DNA of 64,000 nt from a virus: positions 37,923-101,922 of IMG/VR virus record IMGVR_UViG_3300042883_000874; one strand, given 5' to 3'. How positions within the stretch are numbered: the stretch's first letter is position 1; every line of letters begins with the position of its first letter. Made by a program: the position numbers and the translations under genes. Under the pieces are notes generated by a model. It ran no database searches. It was not told the origin of the DNA and was given only the letters and a program-made list of their open reading frames with translations. Of this stretch, positions 4,235-28,396 are shown piece after piece.

Positions 4235-7200
4235 ATGGCAGAAGAATTAGCTAGTCAAGGACAAGAACAAGAACAACTTGCTCCTCAAGAAAGTGAATTA
4301 ACTAATGGGGCTCCTGCTTTACAAGCTTTAAATAATTCTGCTGTTGATAGAATAAGACAAATTGAAGAATCTTTAAATTTACCAGCTAGACCAAATAGTA
4401 TTGATGCTTATAAAAATATAGCAGGTAATCCTATAACAGGATCTAATCCTTCAGCAAAAAATTCAAATAGCTCTGTTGACTTTTTTACAAGCATGGATAA
4501 AGCTTTATCAGCTATGCCTAAAAAAGAAAGTGATATCTATGGAGCAATGAGACCATTTAGTTATAATGGTGATACTGATGGAGCTAACTTTGAAAGATAC
4601 CATTCTTCTGGTGATTTGTATAATAAAATTGGCTTTTCTCCTTATAGAGATAATGAATCTTTATATAATGATAAGATGACATTTGGTGATGAGTTTGTAA
4701 GAGCTGCATCACAATGGGATAACTTAGTAGGTACAGGTTTTAGATCCGGAATTAGGTCTTGGAGTACTTTATTTACTGATCCTTTAGCTCCAGATTTAGA
4801 AGGTGCTAGAGAAATGGAAAGAATAATGGCTGTTGGTTCATCTACAAAAGGTGGTATTGGTGGTTTTTTTATAAATACTTTTTTAAACTCAGGATATACT
4901 ATTGGTATTGGTGCAGATTTTTTAGCTGAAGAATTAGCTTTAATGGGATTAACTGCTGCTACTGGTGGACTAATGGGAGCAACTGGTGCTTCTATGATGG
5001 TAGGTAAAGGCTTAAATGCTGTTGAAAATGTTTTTCAAGGAGCTAAAACTGCTTTTGCTGGGTCAAAAAGAATGGAGAATCTCCGTGCTATAAACAGTGT
5101 TCCTGAAATGAAAAGTCTTTGGACTAAGATGAGTCAAGGAACTAAAAGTGTTGTAAGAGAAACTGCTAATATTTTAAATCCTTTAGACCAAACTGTTGAT
5201 GCATTAAGAGCTACTGACTATGCAAGTAACTATGCTAAGATGACCAAAACTTTTGGAGCTTTTGCTGATGACATGTTGATGATGAAAGGAGCTGTTTCTG
5301 AAGCTAAGCTTGAAGGTGGGATGGCTAAGATTAATATTACAGAAGATCTTGTTGCAAAATATAGATCTGAAAATGGTAAAGATCCTGATGGAGCAGAGAT
5401 GCTAAAGATAGAAAAAATTGCTAATGATAAAGCTTATCAAGTTGCTTTTTGGAACTTACCTGCAATTACTACTAGTAATAAGTTAATGTATGCTACAATG
5501 CTTGCTCCTTTAAGAAGTGTTATGGGAAGAGAAGGTGCTGTTAAATTAGTAGATGATTACTTGTTTAATGGTAAAACATTCTCTGCTGTAGGTGAAGGAT
5601 TCTTATCTAAAGGTAAAGCTGCATTACAATCTTTTACAAAACCTAAATTTTATGGTCAGTTTGGTATGAATTATCTTAAAGCAAACTTTGCTGAAGGTAT
5701 TCAAGAAAACTTACAAGAAGCTATATCTAGTGGAGCTGCTAAACATGCAATGCAATTATATACAGATCCTATTAAAGCAGGTTATGAAGGTTATATGCCT
5801 CATTTTATGCAAGGTCTTGGTGAACAGTTTTCTGCACAAGGAGCTGAAACATTTGCTGGTGGTTTTGCTATGGGTATGTTTGCTCAACCTGTAATGGCTG
5901 CACCTTCTGTTGCTATAAGTAAGCTAGTTAAAGCTTGGGGTACTGAAAATTATGCTGCTGCTGAAAAATTAAACAAAGAATTTAAAGCTAAAAATGCACA
6001 ATATTTAAATGACTTTTATGATAAAGCATTAATTACATTAGCTCCTGATATAGACAATTCTATAACAACAGGTAGATTAGCTGATGATATGTATACAGCT
6101 GCTAGAAATGGTAAAAAGAAAGAAGCTATTGATGCTATAGAAAACATTAAAGATAATAAAATACTAGTAGCCCTTCAAACTGGTAAATTAGATATTATGA
6201 TTAACAAAGTTGCTCAATATAAAAACTTAAGTAGAGCTGAAGTTGTTGAAGCATTTGGTAAATATGGTATTAAAGAACAAGATGTAGACAGTGCTCTAGG
6301 TAAAATAGATGGTATTGTTGCAAGAGCTAATCAACTTAAAAAAGACTATGAAGATGTTGCCGAAAAATATCCTAATCCATTTAATCCTAATAAATTTATA
6401 TTGGGAACTTCTGAAAGAAAAGCTGCAGAAATTGCTTACAAAGCTTGGGAAACTGCTAAGTATAACTTAACATTTGCTAAAGCTACTTATACTTCTCACA
6501 GTAAAAGAGTAGCTGATGTAGCTAATATTTTCTCAAATATTTCTAATGACCTAGCTAAAGCTGATGCTCAAAACTTAATGACATTGCTTAACCCTGCAAC
6601 AACAAAAGGTGAGATCTTAGCACTAAGGCAAGAGCTTTCTGTTCTAGATGATAATGTTCCTGAACAAAAAAAGCTTAAAGCAGAAAAAACTAAACAGCTA
6701 GAAACTATAAATAATTTCTATGAAGCTGTTAAAGCTGTTAAAGAAGCAAAAACTCCTGAAGAAAAAGAAGCTAAAGATGAAATAGCTAAGAAAGCTTTTA
6801 TGGAGCATGTTAAATTCTTAGCTAAAAAGAATGATCATATTGTATTTAATGAAGATATAGAAAAAGCTTATAGTGTAGTTAAAGATCATATGAGTCTTAA
6901 AGATGATATGAAAGGTCTTGCTGAAAGTATTAATGTATTAATGGCTCCTCAAAACTTTTTTAAATTACACACTAGATTAAATGATGCTTATAGTGAAATT
7001 CTTAATAATAAAGAAGGTATTATTGAAGAAAATCAAAAGTTAATTAATAGATTAAACAGTATCAATGGTATATTAAATTTAGTTACTGTAGACTCAGGTT
7101 TAAATATCCCTAATGAATTAATAGAAAAATATGTTGAAGCTTTAGATAATGATATAGAAATGCCAGTAGCTACATACTTTATGGATGCTCAAGGTAATAA

Positions 7201-9706
7201 AGTAACTGCAGGTCCTCAATTTGATATTGCTTTAAAATTATTCAGCAACTTTACAGCTATTGCTGCTAAAGAAAAAGAAGATGAGCTTAAAAATAGACCA
7301 GTAAAAACATTACAAAGTACTATTAATGACATAATAGCTAACAAAGATTTTATTAAACTATCTGAAGATGGTACACATTATGTAAATACTAAAACTGGTA
7401 AAAAGTATGAGAGAGTTACTAACTACATTGCTGATGAAAAATCTAAAAATGATTTTAAAGATGGTATTGAAAAAGGTGAAGATATAGAAGATTACAAACA
7501 AAGATTAATTGGATTAAACTATAAAGGAAAACCTTTAACAAAAAAGCTTACAACAGCTTCTTCTCAGATTATTGGTACAAAAATAGATGTTCTAGTAAGA
7601 GATTTCTTTAATGGAGAACTTAAAGATTTATCAACATATGATGTATCTTCTTTAGAAGAGGTTCAAGCCTTTGTAAAAGAGTTACAACAAATTAAAGATA
7701 AAATGGATGCTAGAGGTGAAAAAGTTCTAGCAAATGATATTTTATTATATGATGATAACTTAGGTGTTGCTGGTACTGTAGATTTACTTACCTATACTGA
7801 GAGTGGTGATATCCGTATATATGATATGAAATCCATGAGAGGTAATCAGTTTACTAATGTTTATTTTAGTGGTATAAATGAAGGAAAAACAGTATATGAT
7901 AATATTTTTGAAGAAGGTAAAGATTCTAATAAAGTAAAACATCAAAAACAATTATCATTATATAGAATTTTATTAAATAATACTCACAACTTAAGAGCAA
8001 AAACTCTTGCTGTAATGCCTATTGAAGTAATATATCAACCAGGTGATGTTGTAACTAGTGAATTAAATCTATTACCTGGAGTAAGAGTAACTCCTTTAGA
8101 TCAAATTAAAGATGCTAGATTACTTCCTTTAAGAGATCAAGGTGAAAAAATAATTTCTTCATTAAGTCCTACAAGAAAAGAAGCACCAAAGACTGAAGAA
8201 GAAGCTAAAGAACAAGCTATTGAAGCTGAGACTAAAAGATTGTTAATGCAACCTAGAGAGAGTCTTACTCCTGCTGAAGAAAAAGCTTTAAGATTTGGAT
8301 TGCCGGGCTCTTCTACTTTACAGACTAGAAAAGAATTTATTGAAAAAAGAATAGAGTTACTAGAGAAAAAAGCTGAAGCTTTAGGTTTAGATGCTATTGA
8401 GATTAATGATACTCTTGCTTACTTAGATGGTATATTAGATACAAGTACTGAAAGTATTCAAAACAATCTTAAAAATATAGATGATCAGATTAAAAGTTTA
8501 AATAATATTATTAAGTCTAAAAGCTCTAAGAAAACTGCAAAAGGTGTTAAAGTTCAAGAGAAGATAGCTGAACTTAAAGCTGCCCGTACAGCAGAGTTTC
8601 AGTTGTTAAATGCTATTACAGATAGAGTAAAAGAACTTGAAGAAGATTTATCTGATGTTGAAGCTGTACAACAAGACTTACAAAAACAAGCTCAATACTA
8701 TTCTTCATTGATTAGTGACCCTACTCTTACTACTTATACAAGAGATGAGTTAATTGCTAGAAGAGATAAGATAAACTCTAAGATAAATACTATAGGTAAA
8801 TTACTTATAGCTGTTAGAAAAGCTATTGCTGATTCAATAAGATATATTAAAGAACATGTTAGTTTGTTATTTCAAACTGATAAAAATCTTAAGACTTTTA
8901 TATCAGATAATGAGTATGAAAATTTTCAATATCCTACAATAAAAAATAAGATTGAGAGTCTTCAAAATGAAGTATTAAATAACATAAATTCAGCTGAGTT
9001 TCTTGAAGTAGTAAAAACTAAAGAGGAAGAAAGGCAAGCTCAATTACTAGCTGCTTTATTAAAATATCAAGATCAAGTAAGATACTTAAGTGAACTAATT
9101 GATAACTATAAAGAAAACAATATAGGAAATAAGTTTACTACTACTACAATGAATCTTAATGCTAAAGAAGTTGTTGCTAGTAAACAAAAAGAATATCCTG
9201 TTACTATCAGTAGAAAGAATGCTAGAATTCAATCAAGAATTAAAGAAGCTAAACTTGCAGCTAGAGATGTTGCTGAAGTTGAGACAGTTACAGTTCCAAC
9301 AGGAGAAGTAGTTGTTTCAAAAGTAGGGCCAACAAAAGTAACTAGTCAACAGTTAAATGAGAATTTAAATTTAAAAAGTTTAAAGGTTGCTCAAACTAAT
9401 AAATTTGAAGTTATTTATGATAATATTCAGTATAAAATTGAGAAAGTTGGAACAAATTCAGTAACTTTGAAAAGTGCACTTGGTACAAAGGTAACAATAA
9501 ATGAAGATGATCTAGTTAGAGATCTTAGAATTGTACAACCAGGTATTGAGGAATCAACTGTAGAGGAAAATGAAATTATTAAAGCTAATGAAAAACTTAT
9601 TTCTGAAGAGCCTAAAGAGTTTAAAAAAACCAAAGCTGCAGATAAAGAAGATTATGCAAAAAGATTAAAAACAGGAAAAACAAATCTTATAGAAAACCTT
9701 TGTTAA
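4235..9706 (+). CDS. Giant virion protein (1823 aa) with G/A-rich hydrophobic segments, coiled coils and a PD-(D/E)xK nuclease domain
   Basis: GVAGTVDLL...IYDMKS...QLSLY nuclease motifs at ~7.4-8.1 kb; G/A-rich putative membrane helices in the N-terminal third. Confidence 0.75.
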   Translation: MAEELASQGQEQEQLAPQESELTNGAPALQALNNSAVDRIRQIEESLNLPARPNSIDAYKNIAGNPITGSNPSAKNSNSSVDFFTSMDKALSAMPKKESDIYGAMRPFSYNGDTDGANFERYHSSGDLYNKIGFSPYRDNESLYNDKMTFGDEFVRAASQWDNLVGTGFRSGIRSWSTLFTDPLAPDLEGAREMERIMAVGSSTKGGIGGFFINTFLNSGYTIGIGADFLAEELALMGLTAATGGLMGATGASMMVGKGLNAVENVFQGAKTAFAGSKRMENLRAINSVPEMKSLWTKMSQGTKSVVRETANILNPLDQTVDALRATDYASNYAKMTKTFGAFADDMLMMKGAVSEAKLEGGMAKINITEDLVAKYRSENGKDPDGAEMLKIEKIANDKAYQVAFWNLPAITTSNKLMYATMLAPLRSVMGREGAVKLVDDYLFNGKTFSAVGEGFLSKGKAALQSFTKPKFYGQFGMNYLKANFAEGIQENLQEAISSGAAKHAMQLYTDPIKAGYEGYMPHFMQGLGEQFSAQGAETFAGGFAMGMFAQPVMAAPSVAISKLVKAWGTENYAAAEKLNKEFKAKNAQYLNDFYDKALITLAPDIDNSITTGRLADDMYTAARNGKKKEAIDAIENIKDNKILVALQTGKLDIMINKVAQYKNLSRAEVVEAFGKYGIKEQDVDSALGKIDGIVARANQLKKDYEDVAEKYPNPFNPNKFILGTSERKAAEIAYKAWETAKYNLTFAKATYTSHSKRVADVANIFSNISNDLAKADAQNLMTLLNPATTKGEILALRQELSVLDDNVPEQKKLKAEKTKQLETINNFYEAVKAVKEAKTPEEKEAKDEIAKKAFMEHVKFLAKKNDHIVFNEDIEKAYSVVKDHMSLKDDMKGLAESINVLMAPQNFFKLHTRLNDAYSEILNNKEGIIEENQKLINRLNSINGILNLVTVDSGLNIPNELIEKYVEALDNDIEMPVATYFMDAQGNKVTAGPQFDIALKLFSNFTAIAAKEKEDELKNRPVKTLQSTINDIIANKDFIKLSEDGTHYVNTKTGKKYERVTNYIADEKSKNDFKDGIEKGEDIEDYKQRLIGLNYKGKPLTKKLTTASSQIIGTKIDVLVRDFFNGELKDLSTYDVSSLEEVQAFVKELQQIKDKMDARGEKVLANDILLYDDNLGVAGTVDLLTYTESGDIRIYDMKSMRGNQFTNVYFSGINEGKTVYDNIFEEGKDSNKVKHQKQLSLYRILLNNTHNLRAKTLAVMPIEVIYQPGDVVTSELNLLPGVRVTPLDQIKDARLLPLRDQGEKIISSLSPTRKEAPKTEEEAKEQAIEAETKRLLMQPRESLTPAEEKALRFGLPGSSTLQTRKEFIEKRIELLEKKAEALGLDAIEINDTLAYLDGILDTSTESIQNNLKNIDDQIKSLNNIIKSKSSKKTAKGVKVQEKIAELKAARTAEFQLLNAITDRVKELEEDLSDVEAVQQDLQKQAQYYSSLISDPTLTTYTRDELIARRDKINSKINTIGKLLIAVRKAIADSIRYIKEHVSLLFQTDKNLKTFISDNEYENFQYPTIKNKIESLQNEVLNNINSAEFLEVVKTKEEERQAQLLAALLKYQDQVRYLSELIDNYKENNIGNKFTTTTMNLNAKEVVASKQKEYPVTISRKNARIQSRIKEAKLAARDVAEVETVTVPTGEVVVSKVGPTKVTSQQLNENLNLKSLKVAQTNKFEVIYDNIQYKIEKVGTNSVTLKSALGTKVTINEDDLVRDLRIVQPGIEESTVEENEIIKANEKLISEEPKEFKKTKAADKEDYAKRLKTGKTNLIENLC

Positions 9707-9707
9707 T

Positions 9708-12700
9708 ATGGTATGTGATTTAAGTAAAAATAATTTAAAAGAGAATCTTGAAAATTATGTAAACCTTTTAATTGAAGGGCAACTTTTAAATGAAGAAAAG
9801 TTTAATTATAAAGATATAATTGATACTATTCAAAAAGATATAGCAGCTGCAAAAAATGACATTCAACAATCATTAGGTGTTGCATATCATGTGCCTCAAA
9901 TTATCTATGATACCATAAAGAATAATCCTGAACTTAGTGAAAAAGAACTTGTTAAAAGAGGTTATGATTCAACTCAGTTAATTAAAGACATAACTGCTTT
10001 AGAAGATGCTGAAGATAAAATGGCTGCTATCTCTACTTTATTAGGTATAGAGAATACAAGTATTGAAGAAATAGAAAAAGTAATAGCTCAGCAAGCTACA
10101 AATCCAGATAAGATTTATTTTAAAGTAGAAGGTTCAGAAGAGCTTGCAATAGATAATATTTTATCTGTTGATGGATATAATTTAACAACTCAACAAACAG
10201 CTGAAGAAGAAAAAGTAAATGGTAAAACTATCCCTAGTAGAACAGCAAGAGATGCAGATAAAGCATTCTATCAAGATGGTTTAGCTAAGATTTTACTAGC
10301 TAGAACAAGTGCTGACCAAGATTTTACAGAACTTGAATATGATGGTAAAACTGGTTTTAGAGGAAAAGTAATGTATGAAAAAAACATTCCAGGAAAAAAA
10401 AGAGCTGGTAGAGAAGACTGGTTACCTAGAAATGTAGTTATGCTTGTTTTAACTGATAATCAAGGTAATATTATGTACTTTGATGAAAATCATAAAATTG
10501 CTAATATTAATACAGGTAAACCTATTTACTTTGCATTAAAAACAGTAAGTGTTACTAATACTAAAAACATTAAAGCTAGTCTAGCTTCTAAATTTAAAAA
10601 CATAACTCCTGAACAAGAGCAAGAAATTAATGAAAAAGTTAAAAAAGATGCTGAAGCTCTTAATAAACTTAAAAAGAAATTAGAAGATACAGAATCAGTT
10701 TTAGTTAACTTAACTGGAGGGTCAGTTGGAGTTGCTCAAAAATTAGATATTTTAACAGAGAAAGAACAAAAAGAAGGAGGAGCTACCTTATCAGAATTTA
10801 ATCAAGATTCTTTTGACCCAAATATAGTATTTGTTAGAGAGGTATTAAAAGGTGTTACAAGAACTTTACCAGCAGTTAAGTTTTATACTGCAGAAAATTT
10901 AATAACATTAAAGAATTCAACAACTCTTGGTAATCAGGATCCTGAACTAATGGATCATCTTATAACTGTTCTTACTGAAGATATTGGATTAACTGATGTA
11001 GAAAAAGAACAATATGTTAGTCAGTTTATAAATCTTTATAGAGATGCTGCTGAATCTGATGCAAAACTTTTACCTTATGTTATTGGTATAAAAACTGATA
11101 ATAATAAAAAGCTTTATATTAATCTTAATAATGTAAGTGTGCCTTTAGAAAATAAAGAGGTATCTAAGCAAATGCTTAAAGACTTCTTTACTAATAGTGT
11201 ATATATTCATTTTAATAATAAACTTTATACAAAACAACAATACACTAAATACACTATTGAAGATACAGCTATTGGGTATAAGATAGTTTCTAAAAATGAA
11301 TTAGCTTATAAACCATTTATATTCAGCAAGTTTACACCTAGAGTTGTAAGAGATAAGAATACAGGTTTACCAATGGTTGTAAATGGTTATTTAAACTTTG
11401 AATCTGAGTTAACTCAAGCTGAAGTTAAACAACAAGTTGTTGAAACTAGAAATAATACTGTAGCTCAAAATATACCAATAACCAATACTGAAGCAGAAGA
11501 AGACTTGGATGATTTAAAATCTTCTAAGTTAATACAAAACTCTGCTACAGCTAAACAAGATGCTAGAGCTGAAAACTGGTGGAGAAATGAATCAGCATTG
11601 GCTAAAGAAGTGGATAGTGCTGGAAAACCTCTTTTTAGTCTATCCCTATTAAGAAATGTTGTAAACTCTGATGCATGGGCAAATTTTAGTAATTCAACTA
11701 TTACTTTATTTAAAGGAGCTAGTTTTACTCAAGTTTATCATGAGGCTTGGCATGCTTTTAGTCAAGTGTATTTAACTAAAGATGAAAGAACTGAGTTGTT
11801 ATACAAACCTGTATCAAAACTTCCAGGCAGTTTTAATGTTGTTAAGAAATTTGTAGAACCAGGTGGTGGTGTTTCTTATAGAATGGTTACTTTAAACTTT
11901 AAAGATCTTGATGTAAACAAGAGACAAGATAGATTATTAATAGAAGAATTTATAGCTGAAGAGTTTAGAAAGTATGCTATGAATAATGGTAAGTTTAAAA
12001 CTGACTCTAAAGCAAAGACTGCCTTAGGTAGAATCTTTGATAGAATATGGAAGGCTTTAAAAGCTCTAGTAGGAAATTCTGATGTATACTCTAACACAAG
12101 TTCAGAAGGTGTTTTAGGTGATATGTTTAATGCTTTATATTCAGCTAAGTCTCCTGAAGACTTATTACCATATTCAGCTAATCTAAAAAATGCTGAGTTT
12201 GGTTCATTAAATAGTGGAGGTATTGTAACAGACAATGCTGAAAATGACTTAAGTGTATCTGAAGCTTTACTATTAACTAGAACTATAGATGGTATATTAT
12301 CAGAATATGTAAATGAACAAGTAGGAAAAGGTCACTTTAGTGCAGTAACAAAAGTATTTTCAAGTAGAAAGTCACTTACTAATATTTATAATAGAGCAAA
12401 GAATAGACTTAATGATAAAATAATTCAGTTAACAGATGAGAGATCTAAGCTTGCACCTACTGATGAACAAGCATTAACTATCATTAATGATAAGATTAAC
12501 TTATTAACAAGAGCTGTTAGAGATGAAGTATTTGGAGATATTGGTAAAGCCTTAGCTGGTCAAACTGCTAATGTTTCAGTTGTTTCTTTTCATAAAAACA
12601 ACAGTACATTTAAAGATTTATTATCTACATTCAAACCTATAGTAGATGAAAAAGATAGTGATGACTATGAAGAGACCAGTGACACTGCTCAACAAGAGTT

Positions 12701-18700: not shown

Positions 18701-20729
18701 AATGTATTTTGTACCTAATGAAAAACTAAGAACTGATTTTATTGAGTTTGGGTTAGAGAGAGAATACTTAAGAAAGAGAACTACTCTTGCTGATGTTATT
18801 GATACAAATGAGTTTCTTACCAGAAGAAAAAGATTAAAAGATTCAGGTTCTTTAGAGTATAAACAAACAGATGAAGAAACTAATGAAGAATATGTTAATA
18901 GATTAAATAATCTTACCTATGAAGATATGTTAGCTAATAAAGCTTTAACTAATACTTACAACATATGGCAGTTATTTAGATCTGGAGACAATACTATAGC
19001 TAGAGAGTTGATGGATATCATTACAAACTATCCTGAGATGAGTGATCTTACTAAATACTCTATGTTAAAACAGTTTATGCCTCAAGGTATACCTAACATA
19101 GCTGCTTATAGAGATGTGTTAAACTTCCAATTAAAAAATTATGAGAATCTTGATGAAGGTTTAATTAGTGAATACTATACCCAATGGAATAATTTATCTA
19201 ATGTTGGTGAACCTAAATTAACTAGTAAAAAATACAGTGATGGTAAAGCTAATGCTTACATAAGTAAGTTTTTTGAGAATCTTCCTATCTATGCTTTCTT
19301 ACAATCAGGTATGGATTCAAGTAAGTTCTCTTTATCTAGTATGATGCCTTATGAAAAGTATCAAGAAATAATGGAAAAAGCTTCTGAGAAGTTTCTTAAA
19401 AAGATTGAAACAACTGATCCTGATACAATTTTTGGTGGTTTAAAGAAACTGTTTGAAATGGAGAATAGTGCATCTCAAGGAAAATTAAGAAACAGAGGAG
19501 CTAATTTAAAAGTTGATATTTCTAACTTACCTGATGCTGAAAATAACATCTATGAACAACCATTCATTAAGCCAGTAACAGGAGATACTGAAATTCCTAC
19601 AGGAATATTTAATATAACTAGTACTTATGTTCAGAATGGTAGAGAGTATCCAGTTACTAAGGATAGGGTTGAAAAATTAATAAAAGCAAACCCTAATGTT
19701 ATATTCTTACTTTCTCCAGCTGACTTACACAAGGTTGGTAAGGACTTAACTCCTGAAGAAATTAAAGCTGCTCAAAAAAATATTGATATTGCTATTGACA
19801 GAATATTAAGTCAAGGTAATGATGTAGTAATATTTGCTGAAGGCTTTGGAGATTCTCCTAAGAACTTCTTCAGTACTAGTACTGACATGAGTACTAAACC
19901 AGTAATTAGTCCAGTTGTAACTGAAAAGAGTACAACTACTCAACAATCTGCTGAAGAAAAAGAAGTTGATAGACTTAGAGCAAAAGAAAAAGCAGCGTAT
20001 GCTGCTATGACTAACCCAGCAGATCAAGAAAAGAGAAAAGAAATTTATCTTAAGTATGATAAGTTACTTACTCCTTTAATGAAAAAGATTGATGCTACTC
20101 AACCATCTAGTAGTGTTATACCTAAAGGTTTTAAACTTTCTATAGATAAAAAAGGTAAAGATCAAGGTAAAGCTAATTTAGCAAATGCTTTTATTTCTTA
20201 TCCTAATTCTGGAACATCAAGTTATGCTTATTTACAAGATGCTAAAAAACAAGGTATTCCTGTTAATGATGAAATTAAAGTTGGCCCACAAGTAATAGCT
20301 TTTGTTTCTGTAAATGGTAATAATAAAGCTACAGATAAACAGATAGAAGATACTTATTTACAAGCTAGAGAAATAATTGAAGCAGGTGGTACTATTATAA
20401 TGGACTCAACTTCTGATGCTAATAGATCATGGAATAAACAAGGAGAAGCTTTAGTACAAGCTGAATTAGGAGTTCCAACAGGTCAAACTTCTAAAGGGTA
20501 TAACTATTGGGGAATTAATCCTGAAAGTACTACTCAACCATCTACTGAAGCATTAGACTTTAAAACTATGCCTGAATTTACAATAGATAGAAAGAGAGAA
20601 ATTTTAACTAACTTAGCAGCCAAACATGGTGTAACTCAACAAGAAGCTTATGAGTATATCAATGAAGCTTTGAATGATAAAACTAAGAACCCTGTTACTA
20701 TAATTAATAAACTAAAAGAATGTTACTAA
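9708..20729 (+). CDS. Virion-packaged crAss-like two-barrel RNA polymerase (3673 aa) with zincin metallopeptidase domain
   Basis: RIPVQGHNS...AKSGTDFDVDK catalytic motif (DFDVD 16593-16607); DADGQ motif; HEAWH (11739-11753) with downstream EEFIAEEF. Confidence 0.9.
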   Translation: MVCDLSKNNLKENLENYVNLLIEGQLLNEEKFNYKDIIDTIQKDIAAAKNDIQQSLGVAYHVPQIIYDTIKNNPELSEKELVKRGYDSTQLIKDITALEDAEDKMAAISTLLGIENTSIEEIEKVIAQQATNPDKIYFKVEGSEELAIDNILSVDGYNLTTQQTAEEEKVNGKTIPSRTARDADKAFYQDGLAKILLARTSADQDFTELEYDGKTGFRGKVMYEKNIPGKKRAGREDWLPRNVVMLVLTDNQGNIMYFDENHKIANINTGKPIYFALKTVSVTNTKNIKASLASKFKNITPEQEQEINEKVKKDAEALNKLKKKLEDTESVLVNLTGGSVGVAQKLDILTEKEQKEGGATLSEFNQDSFDPNIVFVREVLKGVTRTLPAVKFYTAENLITLKNSTTLGNQDPELMDHLITVLTEDIGLTDVEKEQYVSQFINLYRDAAESDAKLLPYVIGIKTDNNKKLYINLNNVSVPLENKEVSKQMLKDFFTNSVYIHFNNKLYTKQQYTKYTIEDTAIGYKIVSKNELAYKPFIFSKFTPRVVRDKNTGLPMVVNGYLNFESELTQAEVKQQVVETRNNTVAQNIPITNTEAEEDLDDLKSSKLIQNSATAKQDARAENWWRNESALAKEVDSAGKPLFSLSLLRNVVNSDAWANFSNSTITLFKGASFTQVYHEAWHAFSQVYLTKDERTELLYKPVSKLPGSFNVVKKFVEPGGGVSYRMVTLNFKDLDVNKRQDRLLIEEFIAEEFRKYAMNNGKFKTDSKAKTALGRIFDRIWKALKALVGNSDVYSNTSSEGVLGDMFNALYSAKSPEDLLPYSANLKNAEFGSLNSGGIVTDNAENDLSVSEALLLTRTIDGILSEYVNEQVGKGHFSAVTKVFSSRKSLTNIYNRAKNRLNDKIIQLTDERSKLAPTDEQALTIINDKINLLTRAVRDEVFGDIGKALAGQTANVSVVSFHKNNSTFKDLLSTFKPIVDEKDSDDYEETSDTAQQELATSLDASSNDVASEKLADDLVLYVIKSLNKQTKDGEPELNELGFPEPIEFLPFWRVLMDKASGETSPLGLYNNLKNASKVSPLFTQLLGKIYSQQTEEGELLSPSDSLTKMFKEGSDIGALWMKFVQSTNLHKVDIVSTVVQEYSNKPTDIRVGKTTADYLGIVNTDWPLAFQQKEIDSFTYKKDQLNYIDLEAVVNRYLIKGVNNENKNVYSVSKENYIPFLNSIGLFLSDMSEIKDSLVPNDIDFIADAIGQTQDSNDLATKDKDKVNIDNIIVYLGKARTLSNGTKLPANAFAVNKLAETEASYSTEYANSMRFNAAKKLKSLFALNSTDTQKINGLKKANEQGDLYSDNPELVHMNFLNPKSNPLTKGSIILKSLFSSVTGIKIKDNDINYRDLSGISYIDETYASDGVTSAKMGFLDKVLSVFISTLGGGYMDGIQAGDKSSNFGVKLNVIDTYDEKINKGLYVDTVAFMKDASGRSIMGYNPMQKILDMLYPKLEGEIRRIAMVKADPEYYNNITGFERGTEFDIFDEILDGSPGLKEALKSEELFESLNKVGDLYIVLNDNPALKKQLNDNIIKFFDKLEESYNKDLFDPIFGVDQPLPAILKELILKDLVNNTKEKNNIYGATPEDVDLNIKKAAIKSYMFNNFIHKTETTLLLQGDGFQFDHTKDDMTKRGPGSQSGGTIFPVDLLTKIFIDAKVGRPYEQKLIADKIIAEKEVRTYGPTLNSAIIQESEVTSVYFNMYRDLFKRDYIDKGLTDEDEINAALYGVDPDTGEIGNAEVDAEGNYSNVFKGGKMKAFINIQDADGQALITFDTYRILRQAEGNWSNEQEALYFKVINGETITATELTNMFPVYKLQYDGPLATEVGRFPIQAFHKYSLFPLIPSVIKDFPANDVHKAMISQNIDYITFTSGSKRSSIKSSPESKGDSIYEGDTSNLKADFTFTPNTIYIAYLKNQTSVNTYFKQQSTFSTQLRKLITSLLYAYGVPTDYIKANNFNSPEEAQTAWDKVKYKRLESKFHDYTEEFKESIDDYVKFKKEELLEELGWTEDDLYAEKVDDAKIKSMLVVLNKEFKRQGFSAHERELLESSSNIDKLDLSVSPLAARFERMIMAMVNNRLVKTKLKGEPLVEVSSAFMQNTKLRNATAEEKAKYKDDFATNGLKPYAVDGINNSIGFMFKRALGKMDENLFQTDYFILNEAGEYVNSGQPIAIYKDEDQEELDFDASFIRLNEMLRVDAWRANDENNKKLRLTGVRIPVQGHNSMEFGEVAEFLRPEAGPIIIIPAEIVAKSGTDFDVDKMTTYMPFLTRSGKLMRKYDKEGIEAERKELEQKFEDLKITKGAIEILKNKKQAQWLDINLKLNDFRKAVSIRARGLNIDADLLNSLTSSKSKEIIKIMSDPNVENLVKEFFPKASLIYNYSIKGITLEDVDAVDGALRSLYKNKSELSKVYTELSDLNDNENNLGGGLQNKLIQDMVNILELPELAASLMSPNDTNLVKPYADKIKGYIQEADNETDFTKSLMTGNKMYKKGISTTKIYTETYNIKKHQENFSSKDSLGIAAVDNYINNLLNMAGAKMQKSVNVTAKVAETKRSFNKKTNKWDTKTVWANQVVEIPLDLNLAHNKLDGAISLSHIMDKEGKNSIADIINQMMNGFVDAGKDAWVAYLQGNPEVVPKFLFLLEAGVPIETIAYFVSNPMTRQYVKDKAKAKATLSKLFNFGTQYDVAPNMLKTISEYLPEAEAEILSKNGYKDLPKDSIYNITTALNYFKKPETFTKETLEGLVKSKLNYKDPNQIAAFLEYLYVEKIIEDYDAMKKAMNPDTKPSGDQYSAQAKIEEVAGLANTPTLDPGPIQKLSTDSIISPYFIQDFARRLFSRLFKLRDDAQLNNFLIKTFKNRTAMSQAKKATGYDSETYITKFKNFISQYIFANELRVYKSGDTEYKNEVINPKFLEQLNQDFDAGLYLATSTDENSYKNRGLTPINGKAFPRLVKMGKDQQMYFVPNEKLRTDFIEFGLEREYLRKRTTLADVIDTNEFLTRRKRLKDSGSLEYKQTDEETNEEYVNRLNNLTYEDMLANKALTNTYNIWQLFRSGDNTIARELMDIITNYPEMSDLTKYSMLKQFMPQGIPNIAAYRDVLNFQLKNYENLDEGLISEYYTQWNNLSNVGEPKLTSKKYSDGKANAYISKFFENLPIYAFLQSGMDSSKFSLSSMMPYEKYQEIMEKASEKFLKKIETTDPDTIFGGLKKLFEMENSASQGKLRNRGANLKVDISNLPDAENNIYEQPFIKPVTGDTEIPTGIFNITSTYVQNGREYPVTKDRVEKLIKANPNVIFLLSPADLHKVGKDLTPEEIKAAQKNIDIAIDRILSQGNDVVIFAEGFGDSPKNFFSTSTDMSTKPVISPVVTEKSTTTQQSAEEKEVDRLRAKEKAAYAAMTNPADQEKRKEIYLKYDKLLTPLMKKIDATQPSSSVIPKGFKLSIDKKGKDQGKANLANAFISYPNSGTSSYAYLQDAKKQGIPVNDEIKVGPQVIAFVSVNGNNKATDKQIEDTYLQAREIIEAGGTIIMDSTSDANRSWNKQGEALVQAELGVPTGQTSKGYNYWGINPESTTQPSTEALDFKTMPEFTIDRKREILTNLAAKHGVTQQEAYEYINEALNDKTKNPVTIINKLKECY

Positions 20730-20730
20730 T

Positions 20731-23079
20731 ATGAGCTGTGTAAATCCCAATGATTCTTTATTTAAGATTTTACTTAAAAAAGTTAAAAATCCTTTATTAG
20801 CTGAGATTGAGTTTGATAAACAGTCTGAAGGTGAACCTGTAAATAAAGCTGAGGCTTCTTATGATAAAGCTCTTATTAAAAATGCTGGCAATGATGTATC
20901 TAAAATATTTGAAAACTATCTTGCTCAATTTGGTATCACTGTAAAAGATATCAATGAAGTAAAAGATAAGTTAAATATTGATGAAGTAGGTTATGCTGAC
21001 ATTCTATCTAAGATTGCCTTTGTTAAAGACAGGAAAAACTTGCCAGAAATAGCTGGTGAATTCATTGCTTACATGATGAAACATAATGGTCTTGTAAAAG
21101 ACATTATATTAGACTTTGCAAAGAATGATGCTAAACTAAAGATAAAAAAGAGTGCTATATACTATGTAGCATCAGGTTTAGGTAAAAGTGTTTTGGCTAA
21201 AAAAAATCCTAACAAGTTTGTTGATATGGATGATTTATTATTTAAAGCTGTTAAGAATATAACAGGTTTAGATATGAATACTATGGATGCATCTATGGAG
21301 CTTAACAAAAATGAAGATGTTGGTAAAGAACTTGTAAAATTAATAGAAGCAGTAAGTGATACTAAAATTATATTAAGTCCTTTAAATGAGGCTAAAATTA
21401 AAAACTTAGGCTTAACATATAAGAAATTCTTTGTTCCTAGTGCAGAGAATATACCTAACATAATAAAAGGTATATCTGAAAGATCTACTAATCCTTATGA
21501 TATTGATGAAGAGTTATATAATGAGTTGTATGTAGATAGAGTATCTAAAAATAAAAATGTTTTTCAAGTTAATAACTATATTGAGAATGAGTTTGAAAAT
21601 TTAAGTACTGATACTCAAAACTTAGAAGAATTCTTAGATAGAGGTGATTATGTTACTACTAATAATTATAGTGATTTATTAAAAGATCAAGACTATTTTA
21701 AAAGAATAGGTATTCTAATTGCTAATGAACTACAAGGTAGATATGATATTTCAAATGATAAGTCATTAGTAAGTAAAATCAAGAAGATTATTAGTAAGTT
21801 CTTTGGGTTATTTAAGAAATCTGATGTTACTACTATTAATAAAAACATTGGTATTATTGTAGATAATGTAGTTAAGCAAAATAAAAACTTTATTACAGCA
21901 AGTATATATAAACCAGGAGCTGAAGGTAAGATTACCAAACCTGTATCCATTAAACAAGCTTTATTAAAAGATGAGTTTGGTAAAAAAATTATATATAAGC
22001 TTTCACAAAAAGGTTTTATTCTTACAGGATCTACAGCTTTATCAGAACAGGGTACTATATTAAGACCAAATGAGAACCCTTTACATGATATTGATTGGGT
22101 AAGCCCTTTCTCTAGAGAAGAGACAGATAAAATTTTTAAAGAAGTGTATCCTGATGCTATTTTTGTCAGAGACATTCAAGATGTAAAAGGAGGCTATACT
22201 ACTGATAGTTATTTAATAGCTCCAGAAGGTTATGAAATTAAAGGTTATGAGGCCAAAAAATATGGTGATAAAATTATTATAGATTCTTATAGTGTTGTAG
22301 ATAAAAAAACTGAGGAAACTGTAGGTACTTATGCTTTAGAGTTTGATGAGGTTAAGAATAAAATGGTTGAAAAGGAAAATGGTGTAACTGGTAAAGTTAT
22401 TGACTTTTTTAGCTATGAAGATTACCAAAAATCAAATAAAAATGAAGCCTTTGAATTTGTTACTTCTGATAAAGTTTCTATTAAATTAGCTAATTGGAAA
22501 GATATCTTTGCTGCTAAATTAAAATTTGCAAGATATAAAGACATATGGGATTATAACAGGTTTGTACCTAATGAGAATATTCAAGAGATAGATGAGGAGA
22601 TAAATGATTATATTACTAAAAAAGTTATTAAAAACTTTGGAATAGCAATTCCTGGTAAAGATAGTGAGCCTCTTGTTCCTAAAGCAGAAACTGATAAGTT
22701 TAATAATGCTGTTATGATGAACAATAATATATTACCATCTGAGTTTTTTACAGGTATAAATAATGTTCATAATTGGAAACTTAATAAGAAAAATCTATAT
22801 AATTTAGTAGATAAAGACACTAAAGAAATATACTTAAGAGATGTAAACCTTAAAACAGGTTATATGGAAGAAGGAGATGTTATAGTTACACCTATCAATG
22901 TTGCTGAACAAGCTGAGACAATAGATTCTGTAAACAATAGTATAGAAAAATATAGACTTGATGAAATTTTAGCTGAAAAAGGTTATGATGCAAATGATAT
23001 TATTAGTAATTTAGAGGCTGCAACAACCCAAGAAGAATTAAATAAGATTATTAACAAATTATTAAAACTGATATGCTAG
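20731..23079 (+). CDS. Virion polyvalent protein with P-loop kinase-like and Pol-beta-fold nucleotidyltransferase-like domains
   Basis: YYVASGLGKS...FVDMD (~21160-21235); FILTGSTAL...HDIDW (~22015-22098). Confidence 0.6.
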   Translation: MSCVNPNDSLFKILLKKVKNPLLAEIEFDKQSEGEPVNKAEASYDKALIKNAGNDVSKIFENYLAQFGITVKDINEVKDKLNIDEVGYADILSKIAFVKDRKNLPEIAGEFIAYMMKHNGLVKDIILDFAKNDAKLKIKKSAIYYVASGLGKSVLAKKNPNKFVDMDDLLFKAVKNITGLDMNTMDASMELNKNEDVGKELVKLIEAVSDTKIILSPLNEAKIKNLGLTYKKFFVPSAENIPNIIKGISERSTNPYDIDEELYNELYVDRVSKNKNVFQVNNYIENEFENLSTDTQNLEEFLDRGDYVTTNNYSDLLKDQDYFKRIGILIANELQGRYDISNDKSLVSKIKKIISKFFGLFKKSDVTTINKNIGIIVDNVVKQNKNFITASIYKPGAEGKITKPVSIKQALLKDEFGKKIIYKLSQKGFILTGSTALSEQGTILRPNENPLHDIDWVSPFSREETDKIFKEVYPDAIFVRDIQDVKGGYTTDSYLIAPEGYEIKGYEAKKYGDKIIIDSYSVVDKKTEETVGTYALEFDEVKNKMVEKENGVTGKVIDFFSYEDYQKSNKNEAFEFVTSDKVSIKLANWKDIFAAKLKFARYKDIWDYNRFVPNENIQEIDEEINDYITKKVIKNFGIAIPGKDSEPLVPKAETDKFNNAVMMNNNILPSEFFTGINNVHNWKLNKKNLYNLVDKDTKEIYLRDVNLKTGYMEEGDVIVTPINVAEQAETIDSVNNSIEKYRLDEILAEKGYDANDIISNLEAATTQEELNKIINKLLKLIC

Positions 23080-26000
23080 CCTGCCCAATTGAATCAAGTG
23101 ATGAGTGGAAAAAGACATTAGCTGATGCTAATGGTGATAGAGATGCTGCACTTATAGAATGGAGAAAACCTGATGGTTTTGGTTCAAAAGATGAGTTTAA
23201 CTTAGAAGTTGATGGAGAAACTTTTGAAACAGAAAGACCTGGGCCAACAGAACCTTTAGAGCCTGAAGTAAAACCTGATAAGTTTTCTAAATTAATAGAT
23301 GATATTAAAGTATATCTTACTACACAATACACTATCTTAACTAAAAAGAAGATTGCTGATCAACCTGAAAAGCAAGCTAGATTGCAAAAGGTTATTGATG
23401 ACTTTGCAGCTCTTGAAGGAGTTGAGTCTATAACAATGTTTATTGATGATGCTTATAAAAAATCCCAACTTGCTAAAGATAGATTTGCTAAGATTATTGC
23501 TAATGAAAAGAACTTAACAAGTAGAGAATTAATGCAAGAGTTATCTGCTATTAATGAATTTGCTAATGGTTATTCTATTCTTGATGAGATTAATAAACAA
23601 GATATTTTTGATTTCTTTAGTGAAAAGGTAGATCCTTCTATTCCAGAAGCACTACTTACTCCTGCTCAAAAACTTACAAGAGCTATTGAAATAAAAAATA
23701 ATATAAATCAACAATTTGTTGAAATTGGTAGACCTTTAATAGCTGAGTTTTTATTAGATTATAAATCAGAAAATATTGGAGAAGATATAATGCCTGAAGT
23801 AACTAAACTTCAAGAACAAATTAAAGCTATTGAAAATGATAGTTCTAAAAATGAAGCTGAAAAACTTAAAGCTATAGAACCTTTACAAAAAAGACTTGAT
23901 AAGTTTCAATCTTTTGTTCTTGATAAAGACTCAATGATAGAGCTTTTAAAAGAAGCTAGTTCTGATGAGAGTGTACTTTCTTACTTAATTGATCCTTTAA
24001 TTAGTTCTAAAGATGCTGCTTTAGGTTTATTTGCTAAAGCTATAAAGAGTCAACTTACTTATGCTAATGTAAAGAATGTTGAAACTAAAAATGAATGGGC
24101 TAAATACTTTTTAGATTATGCAGATTCTACTTCAATAAGCAGAAACAATGTAGCAGAATTTAATGAAGGTATTTATGAGTATGTAGAAGAAAGTTATACA
24201 GATAGTGTAACAGGAGAAATTGTTACTAAAAGAATTCCTCATTTTGTACAAAAATATGACATGACTGCTTATAATAAAGCAGCAAAAGCTGAACAAAAAA
24301 GAAGAGGTTTAGCTCCTGTTTTAAGTGCAAATCCTACAGAATATGAGCAAAAGAAACTTGATAAGTATAATGAAGGACTTGGTAAATGGTATTCTGAAAA
24401 TAAACAATCTAAACCTATTGAAGAGATAGAAGCTATTATTGCTAGTAAGAAAAAAGAACTAGAAAAAAACTTAATTAGTCAAAAAGAATATGATGACTGG
24501 TATAGTTCTAGAGTTTTTAAAACTAAAAATGGTACTATTCAATATAGGTGGGAAATGACTCAGCCATCAGAAAAGTATCTTAATCCAAAATGGTCAGCTC
24601 TTTATGATATAAATGGTAAACCTATTGGAGAAAAAGGAAAACTACATCAGTTTTATTTAAAAACTTACTTTGAAGCTCAAGAACTTCTTCCTGAATCACA
24701 AAAATTAGGATACAGATTACCTGATGTTCCTAAAGAAGATTATGAAAGAGTTTTATCTAATGGTCTTATTGATACAGTTACTGAGAACTTTAAAGATGCT
24801 ACACAAATTAGAGCTCAAGATTCACAACAATATGGTACAGCTAATGCATCAAACTTAGGTGTTAAGTTTATACCTGTTCATTATACTCAAAAAAGTTTAG
24901 CTCCTGAAGATATAAGTCTTGATTTAGGTAAATCTGTATTATTATTTAGTGCAATGTCTAATAGATTTCATGCTTTAAATGAAGTAAATGCTGAGATATC
25001 TTTGTTTAAAACAGTTGTTGGAGCTAGAACTGTTGCTGAAACTAACAGCAAAGGAGAGCCTATAATGAATCAAATTGCTAATAAGCAAAACATTGTAAGA
25101 TTTCTTAAAAAAAATGGAGAAAGTTATTCTCAAAAACATGTTGATGACTTTATTGATATGATTGTATATGGAGAAACACAAGCAGCTGAAGAGTTATTTG
25201 GTTTATCTATGAGTAAAATTACAAATACAGCCAGTGGTATATCTGCAGTAACATCTCTTTCATTAGATGCATTAAAGGGTATGGCCAATAACTTACAAGG
25301 TAATATCCAAATGATTATTGAAGCTAACTCTGGACAGTTTTTTGCTAAGTCTAATTTAGCTAATGGTAAAGGTTTTTATTGGAAATCTGTACCTTCTATG
25401 CTTGCTGACTTTGGTCAACCAACTCCTACTAGTTTATTAGGACAACTTGCTGAATTTTATGATGCCATACAAGGAGAATTTATTGATCAGTATGGTAAAA
25501 AAGTAACAGGAACTGCAGCTTTAAGATTAATGAGTATAGATACTATATTCTTTAACCAATCTTTTGCTGAACATGAAATTCAAGTATCAGGTATGTGTGC
25601 TTTAATGGATGCTACAATGGTTACTGATAAAAATACAGGAGAAGTAATAAGTCTTTTACAAGCTCATATTCTCTATGGAGCATATGGTGTTGCAGAAAAT
25701 ACTAACTTCTCTGAGAAAAAAAGACAAAACTTTCAAAATACTTTACATGCTTTAAATAAAAGAATGCATGGTGTCTATAATGAGTTTGATAAAGGTACAT
25801 CTCAAAAATATTCTGTAAGTAGATTAGCTATAATGTATAGAAAGCATTTAGTACCAGGATACCGTAGAAGATTTAATGACTTAGCAATGGATCAAGAACT
25901 TGGTACATTTACTGAAGGTTACTATAGAACTTTTTGGGATTTATTTTTCAAAGATTTAGTAACTTTTAAATGGAACATGATTGAAGGGTGGTCTACATAT

Positions 26001-26441
26001 ACTCCTTTTCAAAAAGCTCAGATGAAAAGAGTTATAGCTGAACTTGCAACAATTGTAACTACTACAGCTTTAATAGCAATACTTACTTCTATGGGAGATG
26101 ATGATGATGAATTAAAAGACAATTATGCTTATAACTTTGCTTTGTATGAGTTAGTAAGGATGAAGAGTGAAACATCTTCTTATATATCGCCTCCTGATGC
26201 ATATAGAGTTGTTAGATCTCCAACAGCAATGACTAGTACTCTAGAAAGAGTTATTAAATTTACTAATCAGTTTTTCTTAACTTGGGATCCAGATGAGTTA
26301 GACTTTAAGAGAAAATCTGGAGTATGGGATAAAGGTGATAATAAGTCATGGGCATACTTCTTGAAGATGATGGGTTACTCTGGATATAATCTTAAACCAG
26401 AAGAAGCTGTTGAATCATTCCAAGGTACATTAAAAAAATAA
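23073..26441 (+). CDS. Large virion protein (1122 aa), last gene of the RNAP block
   Basis: Helical ORF with a C-terminal hydrophobic helix followed by acidic GDDDDE; position typical of crAss-like cargo genes. Confidence 0.6.
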   Translation: MLACPIESSDEWKKTLADANGDRDAALIEWRKPDGFGSKDEFNLEVDGETFETERPGPTEPLEPEVKPDKFSKLIDDIKVYLTTQYTILTKKKIADQPEKQARLQKVIDDFAALEGVESITMFIDDAYKKSQLAKDRFAKIIANEKNLTSRELMQELSAINEFANGYSILDEINKQDIFDFFSEKVDPSIPEALLTPAQKLTRAIEIKNNINQQFVEIGRPLIAEFLLDYKSENIGEDIMPEVTKLQEQIKAIENDSSKNEAEKLKAIEPLQKRLDKFQSFVLDKDSMIELLKEASSDESVLSYLIDPLISSKDAALGLFAKAIKSQLTYANVKNVETKNEWAKYFLDYADSTSISRNNVAEFNEGIYEYVEESYTDSVTGEIVTKRIPHFVQKYDMTAYNKAAKAEQKRRGLAPVLSANPTEYEQKKLDKYNEGLGKWYSENKQSKPIEEIEAIIASKKKELEKNLISQKEYDDWYSSRVFKTKNGTIQYRWEMTQPSEKYLNPKWSALYDINGKPIGEKGKLHQFYLKTYFEAQELLPESQKLGYRLPDVPKEDYERVLSNGLIDTVTENFKDATQIRAQDSQQYGTANASNLGVKFIPVHYTQKSLAPEDISLDLGKSVLLFSAMSNRFHALNEVNAEISLFKTVVGARTVAETNSKGEPIMNQIANKQNIVRFLKKNGESYSQKHVDDFIDMIVYGETQAAEELFGLSMSKITNTASGISAVTSLSLDALKGMANNLQGNIQMIIEANSGQFFAKSNLANGKGFYWKSVPSMLADFGQPTPTSLLGQLAEFYDAIQGEFIDQYGKKVTGTAALRLMSIDTIFFNQSFAEHEIQVSGMCALMDATMVTDKNTGEVISLLQAHILYGAYGVAENTNFSEKKRQNFQNTLHALNKRMHGVYNEFDKGTSQKYSVSRLAIMYRKHLVPGYRRRFNDLAMDQELGTFTEGYYRTFWDLFFKDLVTFKWNMIEGWSTYTPFQKAQMKRVIAELATIVTTTALIAILTSMGDDDDELKDNYAYNFALYELVRMKSETSSYISPPDAYRVVRSPTAMTSTLERVIKFTNQFFLTWDPDELDFKRKSGVWDKGDNKSWAYFLKMMGYSGYNLKPEEAVESFQGTLKK

Positions 26442-27008: not shown

Positions 27009-27659
27009 TTATATTATTTGATTTTGGGTTAATATTTCTCTTACTTTAGTTATCAAATCTGACATACTACCATTGTTGTCTATCACATAATCAAAGTTAT
27101 GATCATCAAGAGCTGTTTCTGAGGGGTGTGGTACTCCTATACCATGATGTACTCTTATATTTTCAGAAATTTGTTTAAATCTTTGTATTCTAATAGTAAT
27201 ACCATTTCTAGATTTTACAGCATCAAACTCATTAGGGAATCTCATGTCTGTAATAATCCAATTTTGGTTAGTATAATCAGCATATAAAGCATTGACCCAT
27301 ACATTTTCATGTAAACCATTTCTCATAGCTTCTGTACCAAGTTTTTGAAGTAACTCTCTATAAGTCATTCCCCAATCAGAACCTATTTGTAATTTCTTAA
27401 ACTCTTGATCTTCAAGTTGTTCTAAAGTACATCCAGTTAATATACAAGCAATCTCTTTGAGTTTGCCTGCATATTTTTTTATTTCCCAATGTTTGTGGTT
27501 AAATGGATAACCTGCAGTTTTTAAGTTTACCCATTCCTCAAAAGACATATTAGTAGATAAACCTTGACTATTTGCAGCTTTAAACCAATCAAGATACTGT
27601 ATAATTAAACCTACAGTGTCTTTTCCTGAGCCTATGCGGCCTGAAATAGCCAAAATCAT
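27009..27659 (-). CDS. Deoxynucleoside monophosphate kinase
   Basis: GRIGSGKDT P-loop, RELLQKLGTE, ITDMRFPNE, HPSETALD. Confidence 0.9.
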   Translation of the reverse strand: MILAISGRIGSGKDTVGLIIQYLDWFKAANSQGLSTNMSFEEWVNLKTAGYPFNHKHWEIKKYAGKLKEIACILTGCTLEQLEDQEFKKLQIGSDWGMTYRELLQKLGTEAMRNGLHENVWVNALYADYTNQNWIITDMRFPNEFDAVKSRNGITIRIQRFKQISENIRVHHGIGVPHPSETALDDHNFDYVIDNNGSMSDLITKVREILTQNQII

Positions 27660-28360: not shown

Positions 28361-28364
28361 GATA

Positions 28365-28396
28365 CAAATATACATTATCTTTTTCTTATATACAAA
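28365..28396 (-). promoter_or_regulatory. Bacteroidota primary-sigma promoter for the endonuclease
   Basis: TTTG-N20-TATATTTG, 4 nt before ATG 28360. Confidence 0.75.

Follow-up and report, generated by a model that had tools for sequence, protein, structure and literature searches.

The 64,000-nucleotide (nt) stretch of viral DNA considered here, called the window, covers bases 37923-101922 of the 101,922-bp IMG/VR virus record IMGVR_UViG_3300042883_000874, which has an estimated completeness of 85%. Four giant open reading frames (ORFs) in the window encode predicted cargo proteins like those of crAss-like phages, and all but one of the cysteines (Cys) in these proteins are located at the ends that face each other across the three gene junctions. 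Comparison with related loci, together with the analogy of a cyanophage protein pair, suggests that the facing cysteines probably form head-to-tail disulfide tethers, which would join the four proteins into an unbranched cargo chain.

Cysteine Placement in the Window

The four ORFs encode proteins of 1823, 3673, 782 and 1122 amino acids (aa), and their translation gives Cys at exactly the positions listed in the original prediction. There are seven Cys in 7,400 residues, as compared with the ~98 expected at the genome-wide frequency of 1.33% (depletion P ~2e-33). Six of the seven lie inside the six terminal zones that face a junction, which together make up 54 of the 7,400 residues (binomial P ~1e-12); translation thus confirms the claim that six of the seven sit at the termini of the three gene junctions.

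All four genes are on the plus strand. The first chain member (1823 aa; 4235-9706) begins with MAEELASQ, without a Cys, and its sole Cys is its last residue, Cys1823 (codon 9701-9703), at the end of the terminus IENLC. The second member, a 3673-aa virion RNA polymerase (RNAP; 9708-20729), begins with MVC and ends with KECY, so that it has Cys3 (codon 9714-9716) and Cys3672 (codon 20721-20723). The third member (782 aa; 20731-23079) extends from MSC to KLIC and has Cys3 (codon 20737-20739) and Cys782, its last residue (codon 23074-23076). The last member (1122 aa; 23073-26441) begins with MLAC and ends with GTLKK; it has Cys4 (codon 23082-23084), no C-terminal Cys and one internal Cys, Cys842 (25596-25598), which is not conserved, as relatives have F, L or I at that site.

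Junction 1 (9701-9716, plus strand) reads TGT TAA T ATG GTA TGT and junction 2 (20721-20739, plus strand) reads TGT TAC TAA T ATG AGC TGT. In the relative L006 (labels of this form denote the related loci surveyed below) the same junction 2 peptides read INKLKECY and MACVNPND. The genes overlap at junction 3 (23073-23084, plus strand), which reads A TGC TAG CC TGC; here the TGC codon of Cys782 and the ATG that starts the 1122-aa gene have bases in common.

The Four Proteins and Their Families

The four proteins would make up a cargo block consisting of a first protein, a virion RNA polymerase, an effector-like protein and a gp65-like last protein; the cargo proteins of relatives are packed in the capsid and injected. 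The 3673-aa protein has the catalytic motif DFDVDKM at residue 2296 (DFDVD, residues 2296-2300, at 16593-16607) and aligns with gp66 of phage phi14:2 through the catalytic region (BLASTP E 6e-10). These features identify it as the crAss-like virion RNA polymerase, and the label RNAP given to it in the original prediction holds. A conserved zincin-like HEAWH motif is present in its N-terminal part at residue 678 (11739-11753); the zincin domain of phi14:2 is said to lie in gp65.

The 1122-aa family is very large (2,470 cluster representatives with E values of at most 0.001), and its profile matches phi14:2 gp65 over 896 columns (hhalign probability 100%, E 2.4e-59). By this profile match the 1122-aa protein is a homologue of gp65, encoded after the RNAP. 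The 1823-aa protein has an exonuclease-like domain at residues 1014-1261 (7274-8017; PHROG 298, E 5e-11). It is comparable in position and size to phi14:2 gp67 (1823 versus 1797 aa), although BLASTP alone gives E 0.33, and so the resemblance is not one of detectable BLASTP similarity.

The 782-aa protein has a core, at approximately residues 48-620 (20872-22590), that keeps ~55% identity among very divergent relatives. The core has an invariant GS...HDIDW motif, and its position shifts inside the giant proteins of these relatives. The AlphaFold model of the core has a mean pLDDT of 63, with residues 370-560 as the confident part, and it weakly matches the Helicobacter pylori nucleotidyltransferase JHP933 (Foldseek E 6e-3, probability 0.98). 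From this model, the core is a candidate for an injected effector of the nucleotidyltransferase type. Other effector domains, e.g., PF18760 and PF07737, are among the precomputed Pfam matches of cargo protein homologues.

Otherwise the databases contain little that resembles these proteins. No match to the RNAP or the 782-aa protein was found in the INPHARED phage collection by megablast and tblastn, none of the four proteins matched a Pfam family, and the PHROGs gave almost nothing. The 782-aa protein matched neither a Pfam nor a PHROG family, and a PDB sequence search with the 1122-aa protein gave no match.

Independent protein searches bore out the terminal Cys in all four families. A single Cys, within the last three residues, is present in 12 of 13 homologues of the 1823-aa protein. 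A C-terminal Cys is present in 64 of 65 RNAP homologues and both terminal Cys in 48; 112 of the 137 Cys in these homologues, which together comprise 240,254 residues, are terminal. The RNAP homologues without an N-terminal Cys are for the most part longer forms, which probably include the upstream protein as a fusion. Of 34 homologues of the 782-aa protein that have a similar length, 25 have exactly two Cys, one of them at position 3-4 and the other within the last 1-3 residues. Most of the others are on short contigs and lack one or both terminal Cys, and they are probably fragments; in two complete-looking homologues, the second Cys is farther from the end.

In the 1122-aa family, sampled as 150 representatives clustered at 50% identity, an N-terminal Cys is present in 117 and a C-terminal Cys in none (0/150). 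The N-terminal Cys is found in 81 of the 82 members of 1,300-2,500 aa and in none of the 14 fused forms that reach or exceed 2,500 aa. All four families in the window obey the terminal-Cys rule, which is general, and hundreds of relatives follow it. The original prediction had also pointed out that the first protein lacks an N-terminal and the last a C-terminal Cys, and this is seen in the window and, for the C-terminus, throughout the sample of the 1122-aa family. Since the last module never has a C-terminal Cys and the first has no N-terminal Cys, the chain has defined ends.

Split and Fused Genes in Related Loci

The survey included the ten nearest relatives from IMG/VR and ~90 further loci gathered with a profile of the 782-like core and with phi14:2 gp66. 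In the ten nearest relatives, the giant ORFs are likewise almost devoid of Cys, and a pair of Cys is present at every junction, with the first Cys 1-4 residues from the end of one ORF and the second at position 3-4 of the next. Domain mapping onto the window indicates that the breaks are at differing sites of a shuffled domain order. For example, the RNAP is fused with the 782-like core in L002 and L003 and the break comes after the core, and the module order is wholly different in L007 and L010. The split at junction 3 is lineage-specific, as both parts are fused and Cys-free there in L004, L005, L006 and L008.

Pairs were scored for adjacent complete ORFs, each of at least 500 aa and with less than 0.3% Cys, in 91 non-redundant Crassvirales loci. 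L070-L077, L097 and L100, all from the human-gut sample 3300045988, were kept outside the counts; their gp66-matching region falls into short ORFs under translation table 11, as expected for stop-codon-reassigning crAss-like phages. Both junction Cys are present in 94 pairs, neither is present in 78 and two pairs are discordant (Fisher P 1e-47, with kinship ignored). The discordant pair in L069 is a start-codon artefact, and its true start reads MVC. Among other adjacent gene pairs, both Cys are present in just 11 of 214. The N-terminal Cys is at position 3 in 55 cases, at position 4 in 26 and at positions 5-7 in 14, and the C-terminal Cys is the last residue in 28, the second from the end in 34, the third in 21 and the fourth to seventh in 12.

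The fully fused polyproteins of L089, L093 and L098 (5,520-5,639 aa) have no Cys at all. The original prediction had set as a test that terminal Cys pairs should accompany every split between Crassvirales cargo genes and be absent from fusions, and this test came out in its favor in the 91 loci and the four families. An accidental negative control is provided by L063, in which the RNAP frame is broken (L063:9491-17649) and continuous in the near-identical L064 (L064:9491-17650). There is no Cys at this break, which is probably a frameshift or an assembly error.

These counts bear on the possibility that the pattern arose by chance or as a by-product of a general avoidance of Cys in virion proteins. 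General avoidance would fit the observation that the portal-like, capsid-like and other structural ORFs upstream in the same genome are Cys-free as well; however, such Cys-free neighbors have no terminal Cys, as in the 78 'neither' pairs. Chance would have to produce the placement in the window, at the probability given above, and to repeat it across families clustered at 50% identity, and it is refuted by the survey. We therefore give this explanation virtually no weight.

The partners are not always adjacent. They are 230-6,170 nt apart in 14 surveyed loci, some of them near-identical to one another, and the genes between them are mostly ferritin-like or GIY-YIG endonuclease genes (eight gaps scanned and matched). 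A ferritin-like gene of ~160 aa (PF00210, E 1e-13 to 4e-19) is located exactly between the Cys partners in six loci (L009:7372-7857, L031:17185-17679, L037:8017-8517, L055:8327-8818, L080:14480-14968 and L101:5694-6164). ORFs of about this size, known by their size only, are at the same spot in L046 and L088, and GIY-YIG endonuclease genes are between the partners in L082 and L088. No ferritin match was found in the genome from which the window comes. A redox tie between the ferritin-like genes and the Cys pairs is speculation.

The spacing also helps to judge whether the Cys codons could be a nucleic acid or translation signal, for instance for ribosome hopping of the T4 gene 60 type or for coupling, that yields one fused product. 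The facing codons are matched at the window junctions (TGT/TGT, TGT/TGT and TGC/TGC), and at two of the three junctions the 'take-off' codon is immediately followed by the stop codon. However, ribosomes would have to hop over the 230-6,170 nt, with their genes, in the 14 loci, and also between gp47 and gp50 of crAss001, which are on opposite strands. In addition, the codons (TGT or TGC) are mismatched in three of ten relatives, with 0-3 codons between the Cys and the stop, and the downstream ORFs invariably start with an ATG of their own, 2-7 codons ahead of the Cys. Because of the opposite-strand partners, the inserted genes, the mismatched codons and the constant starts, the translational explanation fails as a general one, and we consider it extremely improbable. 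The pattern is better explained by a constraint that acts on the proteins themselves.

Cultured Phages and Comparable Systems

Two cultured phages, whose cargo proteins have been detected in virions by mass spectrometry, display the same pattern. In phi14:2, gp67 has Cys1797 only, which is its last residue, gp66 has Cys3 and Cys2179 only and gp65 has Cys3 only. In crAss001, gp47 has Cys2339 only (of 2341 residues), gp50 has Cys5, Cys1334 and Cys2404 (of 2412) and gp49 has Cys5 only; gp47 is encoded on the strand opposite to gp50 and gp49. The RNAP and the last protein of the series gp67-gp66-gp65 and gp47-gp50-gp49 are homologous to those of the window, and the terminal-Cys pattern is identical. 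The phi14:2 and crAss001 chains have three members, whereas an extra split gives the window four.

Intermolecular disulfides are known in crAss001 particles, in the tail and in the gp57 dimer (PMC10172136). Like the links proposed for the window, they join separately encoded crassvirus virion proteins; unlike them, they lock folded structural subunits at sites other than the chain termini, and the ejected cargo has no part in them. The cargo proteins gp47, gp49 and gp50 are present at about six copies each and need partial unfolding to pass constrictions of <50 Å, and their exit order has been suggested to depend on packing and mutual interactions (PMC10172136).

The closest precedent is in the cyanopodophage A4 (Anabaena phage A-4L), where a disulfide between gp27 Cys1715 and gp26 Cys5 has been modeled by cryo-electron microscopy in the pre-ejectosome (PNAS 2025, PMC12002296). 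In the A-4L genome, gp27 (1,717 aa) has Cys1715 as its sole Cys and gp26 (1,114 aa) has Cys5 as its sole Cys. Thus, a giant ejection protein with a near-terminal sole Cys is linked head to tail, within the capsid, to the next-encoded protein through Cys5. All three junctions of the window bear the same sequence signature. The differences are that A-4L, a member of the Saffermanviridae, has one link between two proteins and no virion RNA polymerase and that the A4 bond is treated as a local stabilizer rather than as a chain rule tied to gene fission and fusion (PMC12002296). The resemblance is a functional analogy and possibly a case of convergence.

The fused cargo polyproteins of crAss-like phages have the modules of the window in one continuous peptide chain (10.1101/2020.03.07.982082). 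Their continuity, as in L089, L093 and L098, comes from peptide bonds, whereas that of the window proteins would be post-translational. These polyproteins are assumed in the literature to be cleaved (10.1101/2020.03.07.982082). In the T7 (gp14, gp15 and gp16) and N4 (gp51, gp52 and vRNAP) ejectosomes, internal proteins also leave through the tail ahead of or with the DNA, and N4, like the relatives of the window virus, ejects a giant RNAP; no covalent links between these ejection proteins are reported in the literature searched.

The original prediction stated that no description of such a mechanism was known. This has to be amended in that one link, A4 gp27-gp26, is published (PMC12002296); for crassviruses, a full-text literature search found no paper describing terminal-Cys links. 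Terminal cysteines are not mentioned in the gp66 preprint (10.1101/2020.03.07.982082), the crAss001 atlas (PMC10172136) or the 2026 N4 ejection paper. Relative to the published A4 bond, the multi-member chains that include an RNA polymerase, the order-wide rule and the coupling to gene fission and fusion are new.

The A-4L and crAss001 observations are also pertinent to whether the Cys pair head to tail at all. They might instead serve homodimers, rings of the middle proteins or anchoring to the portal, capsid or tail. The partners of a Cys cannot be read from the sequence, the two Cys of the middle proteins would permit ring closure, and there are many intermolecular disulfides in the crAss001 tail. 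However, independent uses would not couple the Cys of neighbors as closely as in the 94, 78 and two pairs counted above, nor would they delete both Cys upon fusion, and they leave unexplained why the first protein lacks only the N-terminal and the last only the C-terminal Cys. Furthermore, the A-4L link is heterotypic and head to tail. We consider these other pairings rather unlikely, and head-to-tail pairing of neighbors remains the preferred reading.

Proposed Head-to-Tail Chain

Cysteine is excluded from each protein except for the last one or two residues and/or position 3-4, and we propose that the C-terminal Cys of each protein bonds with the N-terminal Cys of the next. The bond would most probably be a disulfide formed upon particle assembly or release. 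The resulting unbranched chain, 1823-3673-782-1122, would mimic the single polyprotein of some relatives. As the Cys are at the very ends and none is inside, the chain would be a thread without loops or branches that could pass the narrow tail partly unfolded. The constraint acts on the proteins, couples each C-terminus to the next N-terminus and is dispensable under a peptide bond, and so the simplest reading is a covalent head-to-tail link. Roles of the chain in stoichiometric packaging, as put forward in the original prediction, and in ejection are plausible, and we infer that the proteins would be ejected in order as one thread and that reduction in the cytoplasm would release them.

Several observations weigh against this proposal. 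A disulfide between cargo proteins has not been observed in any crassvirus to date. Crassvirus particles assemble in the reducing cytoplasm, and the gut crassviruses live without oxygen. Two loci are rare exceptions to the pairing: in L068 (L068:7370-24543) an N-terminal Cys is present in a protein that lacks a partner upstream, and in L087 (L087:2675-19795) C-terminal Cys are followed by proteins without an N-terminal Cys. In L083, 18 residues separate the Cys from the end, and there are occasional lone internal Cys (49 in 399,166 residues). The terminal peptides are not conserved between families or lineages. The RNAP-type cargo is unresolved in the crAss001 maps (PMC10172136), and no homology of A-4L gp26 and gp27 to the window proteins was detected (BLASTP E 0.034 over 67 residues; hhalign 2%).

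The reducing cytoplasm, which disfavors an early disulfide, leads to the question of whether the facing Cys are joined in some other way, i.e., through a shared metal ion, a thioether or thioester, or a ligation made by an enzyme. The chemistry cannot be read from the sequence, and the comparative data suit any link between two thiols. Nevertheless, a metal would be poorly held by two thiolates, and the residues beside them include no conserved His, Cys, Asp or Glu; in addition, no ligase-like partner gene was noticed and the identical signature in A-4L was modeled as a disulfide. A link other than a disulfide is thus an unlikely alternative. As regards the covalent chain of the original prediction, it is the best-supported reading of the comparative data and the A-4L precedent, and the metal bridge and ligation that were named along with it stay as alternatives to the disulfide. 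Split inteins were considered and rejected: there are 0-1 residues after the C-terminal Cys in the window (at most six in relatives) and just 2-3 residues before the N-terminal Cys, versus intein halves of ~100 and 35 residues, and there is no Pfam match.

The disulfide chain would require that the right ends find each other, and the terminal peptides give little indication of how. Within families they are kept; for example, MVCDLS... is found in the RNAP clade, CPNKNS-like heads in the 1122-aa family and IINKLLxxIC tails in the 782-aa family. No conserved 'plug' or 'socket' modules emerged when 132 N-terminal heads and 125 C-terminal tails were all compared with one another by BLAST; the only links were to the nearest relative, L006. 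Comparison of the 782 and 1122 family profiles gave a probability of 1%, and shuffling tests on the N-terminal heads were not significant. The IINKL helix that the original prediction saw in two C-termini is literally present, but the evidence for homology is weak (shuffling P 0.02-0.05, uncorrected). A complex prediction for junction 2 (RNAP residues 3590-3673 with the whole 782-aa protein, from separate alignments) gave ipSAE values of 0.23 and 0.14, where the mark is 0.32; as no controls accompany these values, they count neither for nor against the pairing. No thiol oxidase or thioredoxin was found among eight small Cys-bearing ORFs of the window, in a search that was not exhaustive.

Neighboring Genes

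The G+C content of the window is ~30%. Beyond the giant ORFs, which are read rightward, the replication genes (DNA polymerase, primase, helicases and exonuclease) are read leftward. Immediately upstream of the 1823-aa gene, a 925-aa Cys-poor protein (1456-4233, plus strand) has Cys128 and Cys134 only (1837-1857) and Cys-free termini. Because it has only this close pair and no terminal Cys, it is not a chain member, and it marks the start of the chain.

Outside of the window, a 900-aa protein of the same genome (C1:32936-35638) likewise has only a close pair, Cys103/Cys106, and close pairs are also present in crAss001 gp45 (390/398), phi14:2 gp69 (369/378) and A-4L gp28 (1036/1039). Closely spaced pairs in upstream virion proteins would form tiny loops only, which fits a 'threadable' rule.

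Farther upstream, C1:13444-22588 contains a run of Cys-rich ORFs, e.g., one of 1062 aa with 78 Cys (7.3%) and one of 418 aa with 30. The tail-fibre-like ORFs of the genome have 3-7% Cys, and the Cys-rich ORFs probably encode tail-fibre or receptor-binding proteins that are rich in disulfides. They are the opposite extreme from the Cys-poor cargo block in one and the same particle.

Two genes of the homing-endonuclease type are present in the window. An HNH gene (963-1454, plus strand; PHROG 99, E 9e-36) is inserted between two Cys-free virion genes, and a GIY-YIG gene (27656-28375, minus strand) adjoins the replication block.

Significance

A broader proposal, which we consider somewhat less likely than not, is that crassviruses and, convergently, at least one cyanophage might package a redox-gated 'protein train' that is threaded through the tail in a fixed order, after which cytoplasmic reductants would cut it and free the active RNAP. 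In such a train, the disulfide would substitute for a peptide bond, so that genes could split and fuse freely. The shuffled architectures would thereby be accounted for, and loops in the thread would be prevented by the almost complete exclusion of internal Cys.

What sets the order in which podovirus-like phages release megadaltons of internal protein ahead of their DNA, and what drives this release, is an open question, and both the crAss001 atlas (PMC10172136) and the 2026 N4 study name it for crassviruses. As the Cys rule is order-wide and can be read from the sequence, it offers a cheap and concrete test. With this rule, the sequence alone predicts in which order the cargo proteins are chained, and in metagenomic crass genomes true gene ends can be told from frameshift artefacts (e.g., L063 versus L064). 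Finally, it accounts for the free splitting and fusing of the crassvirus cargo genes.

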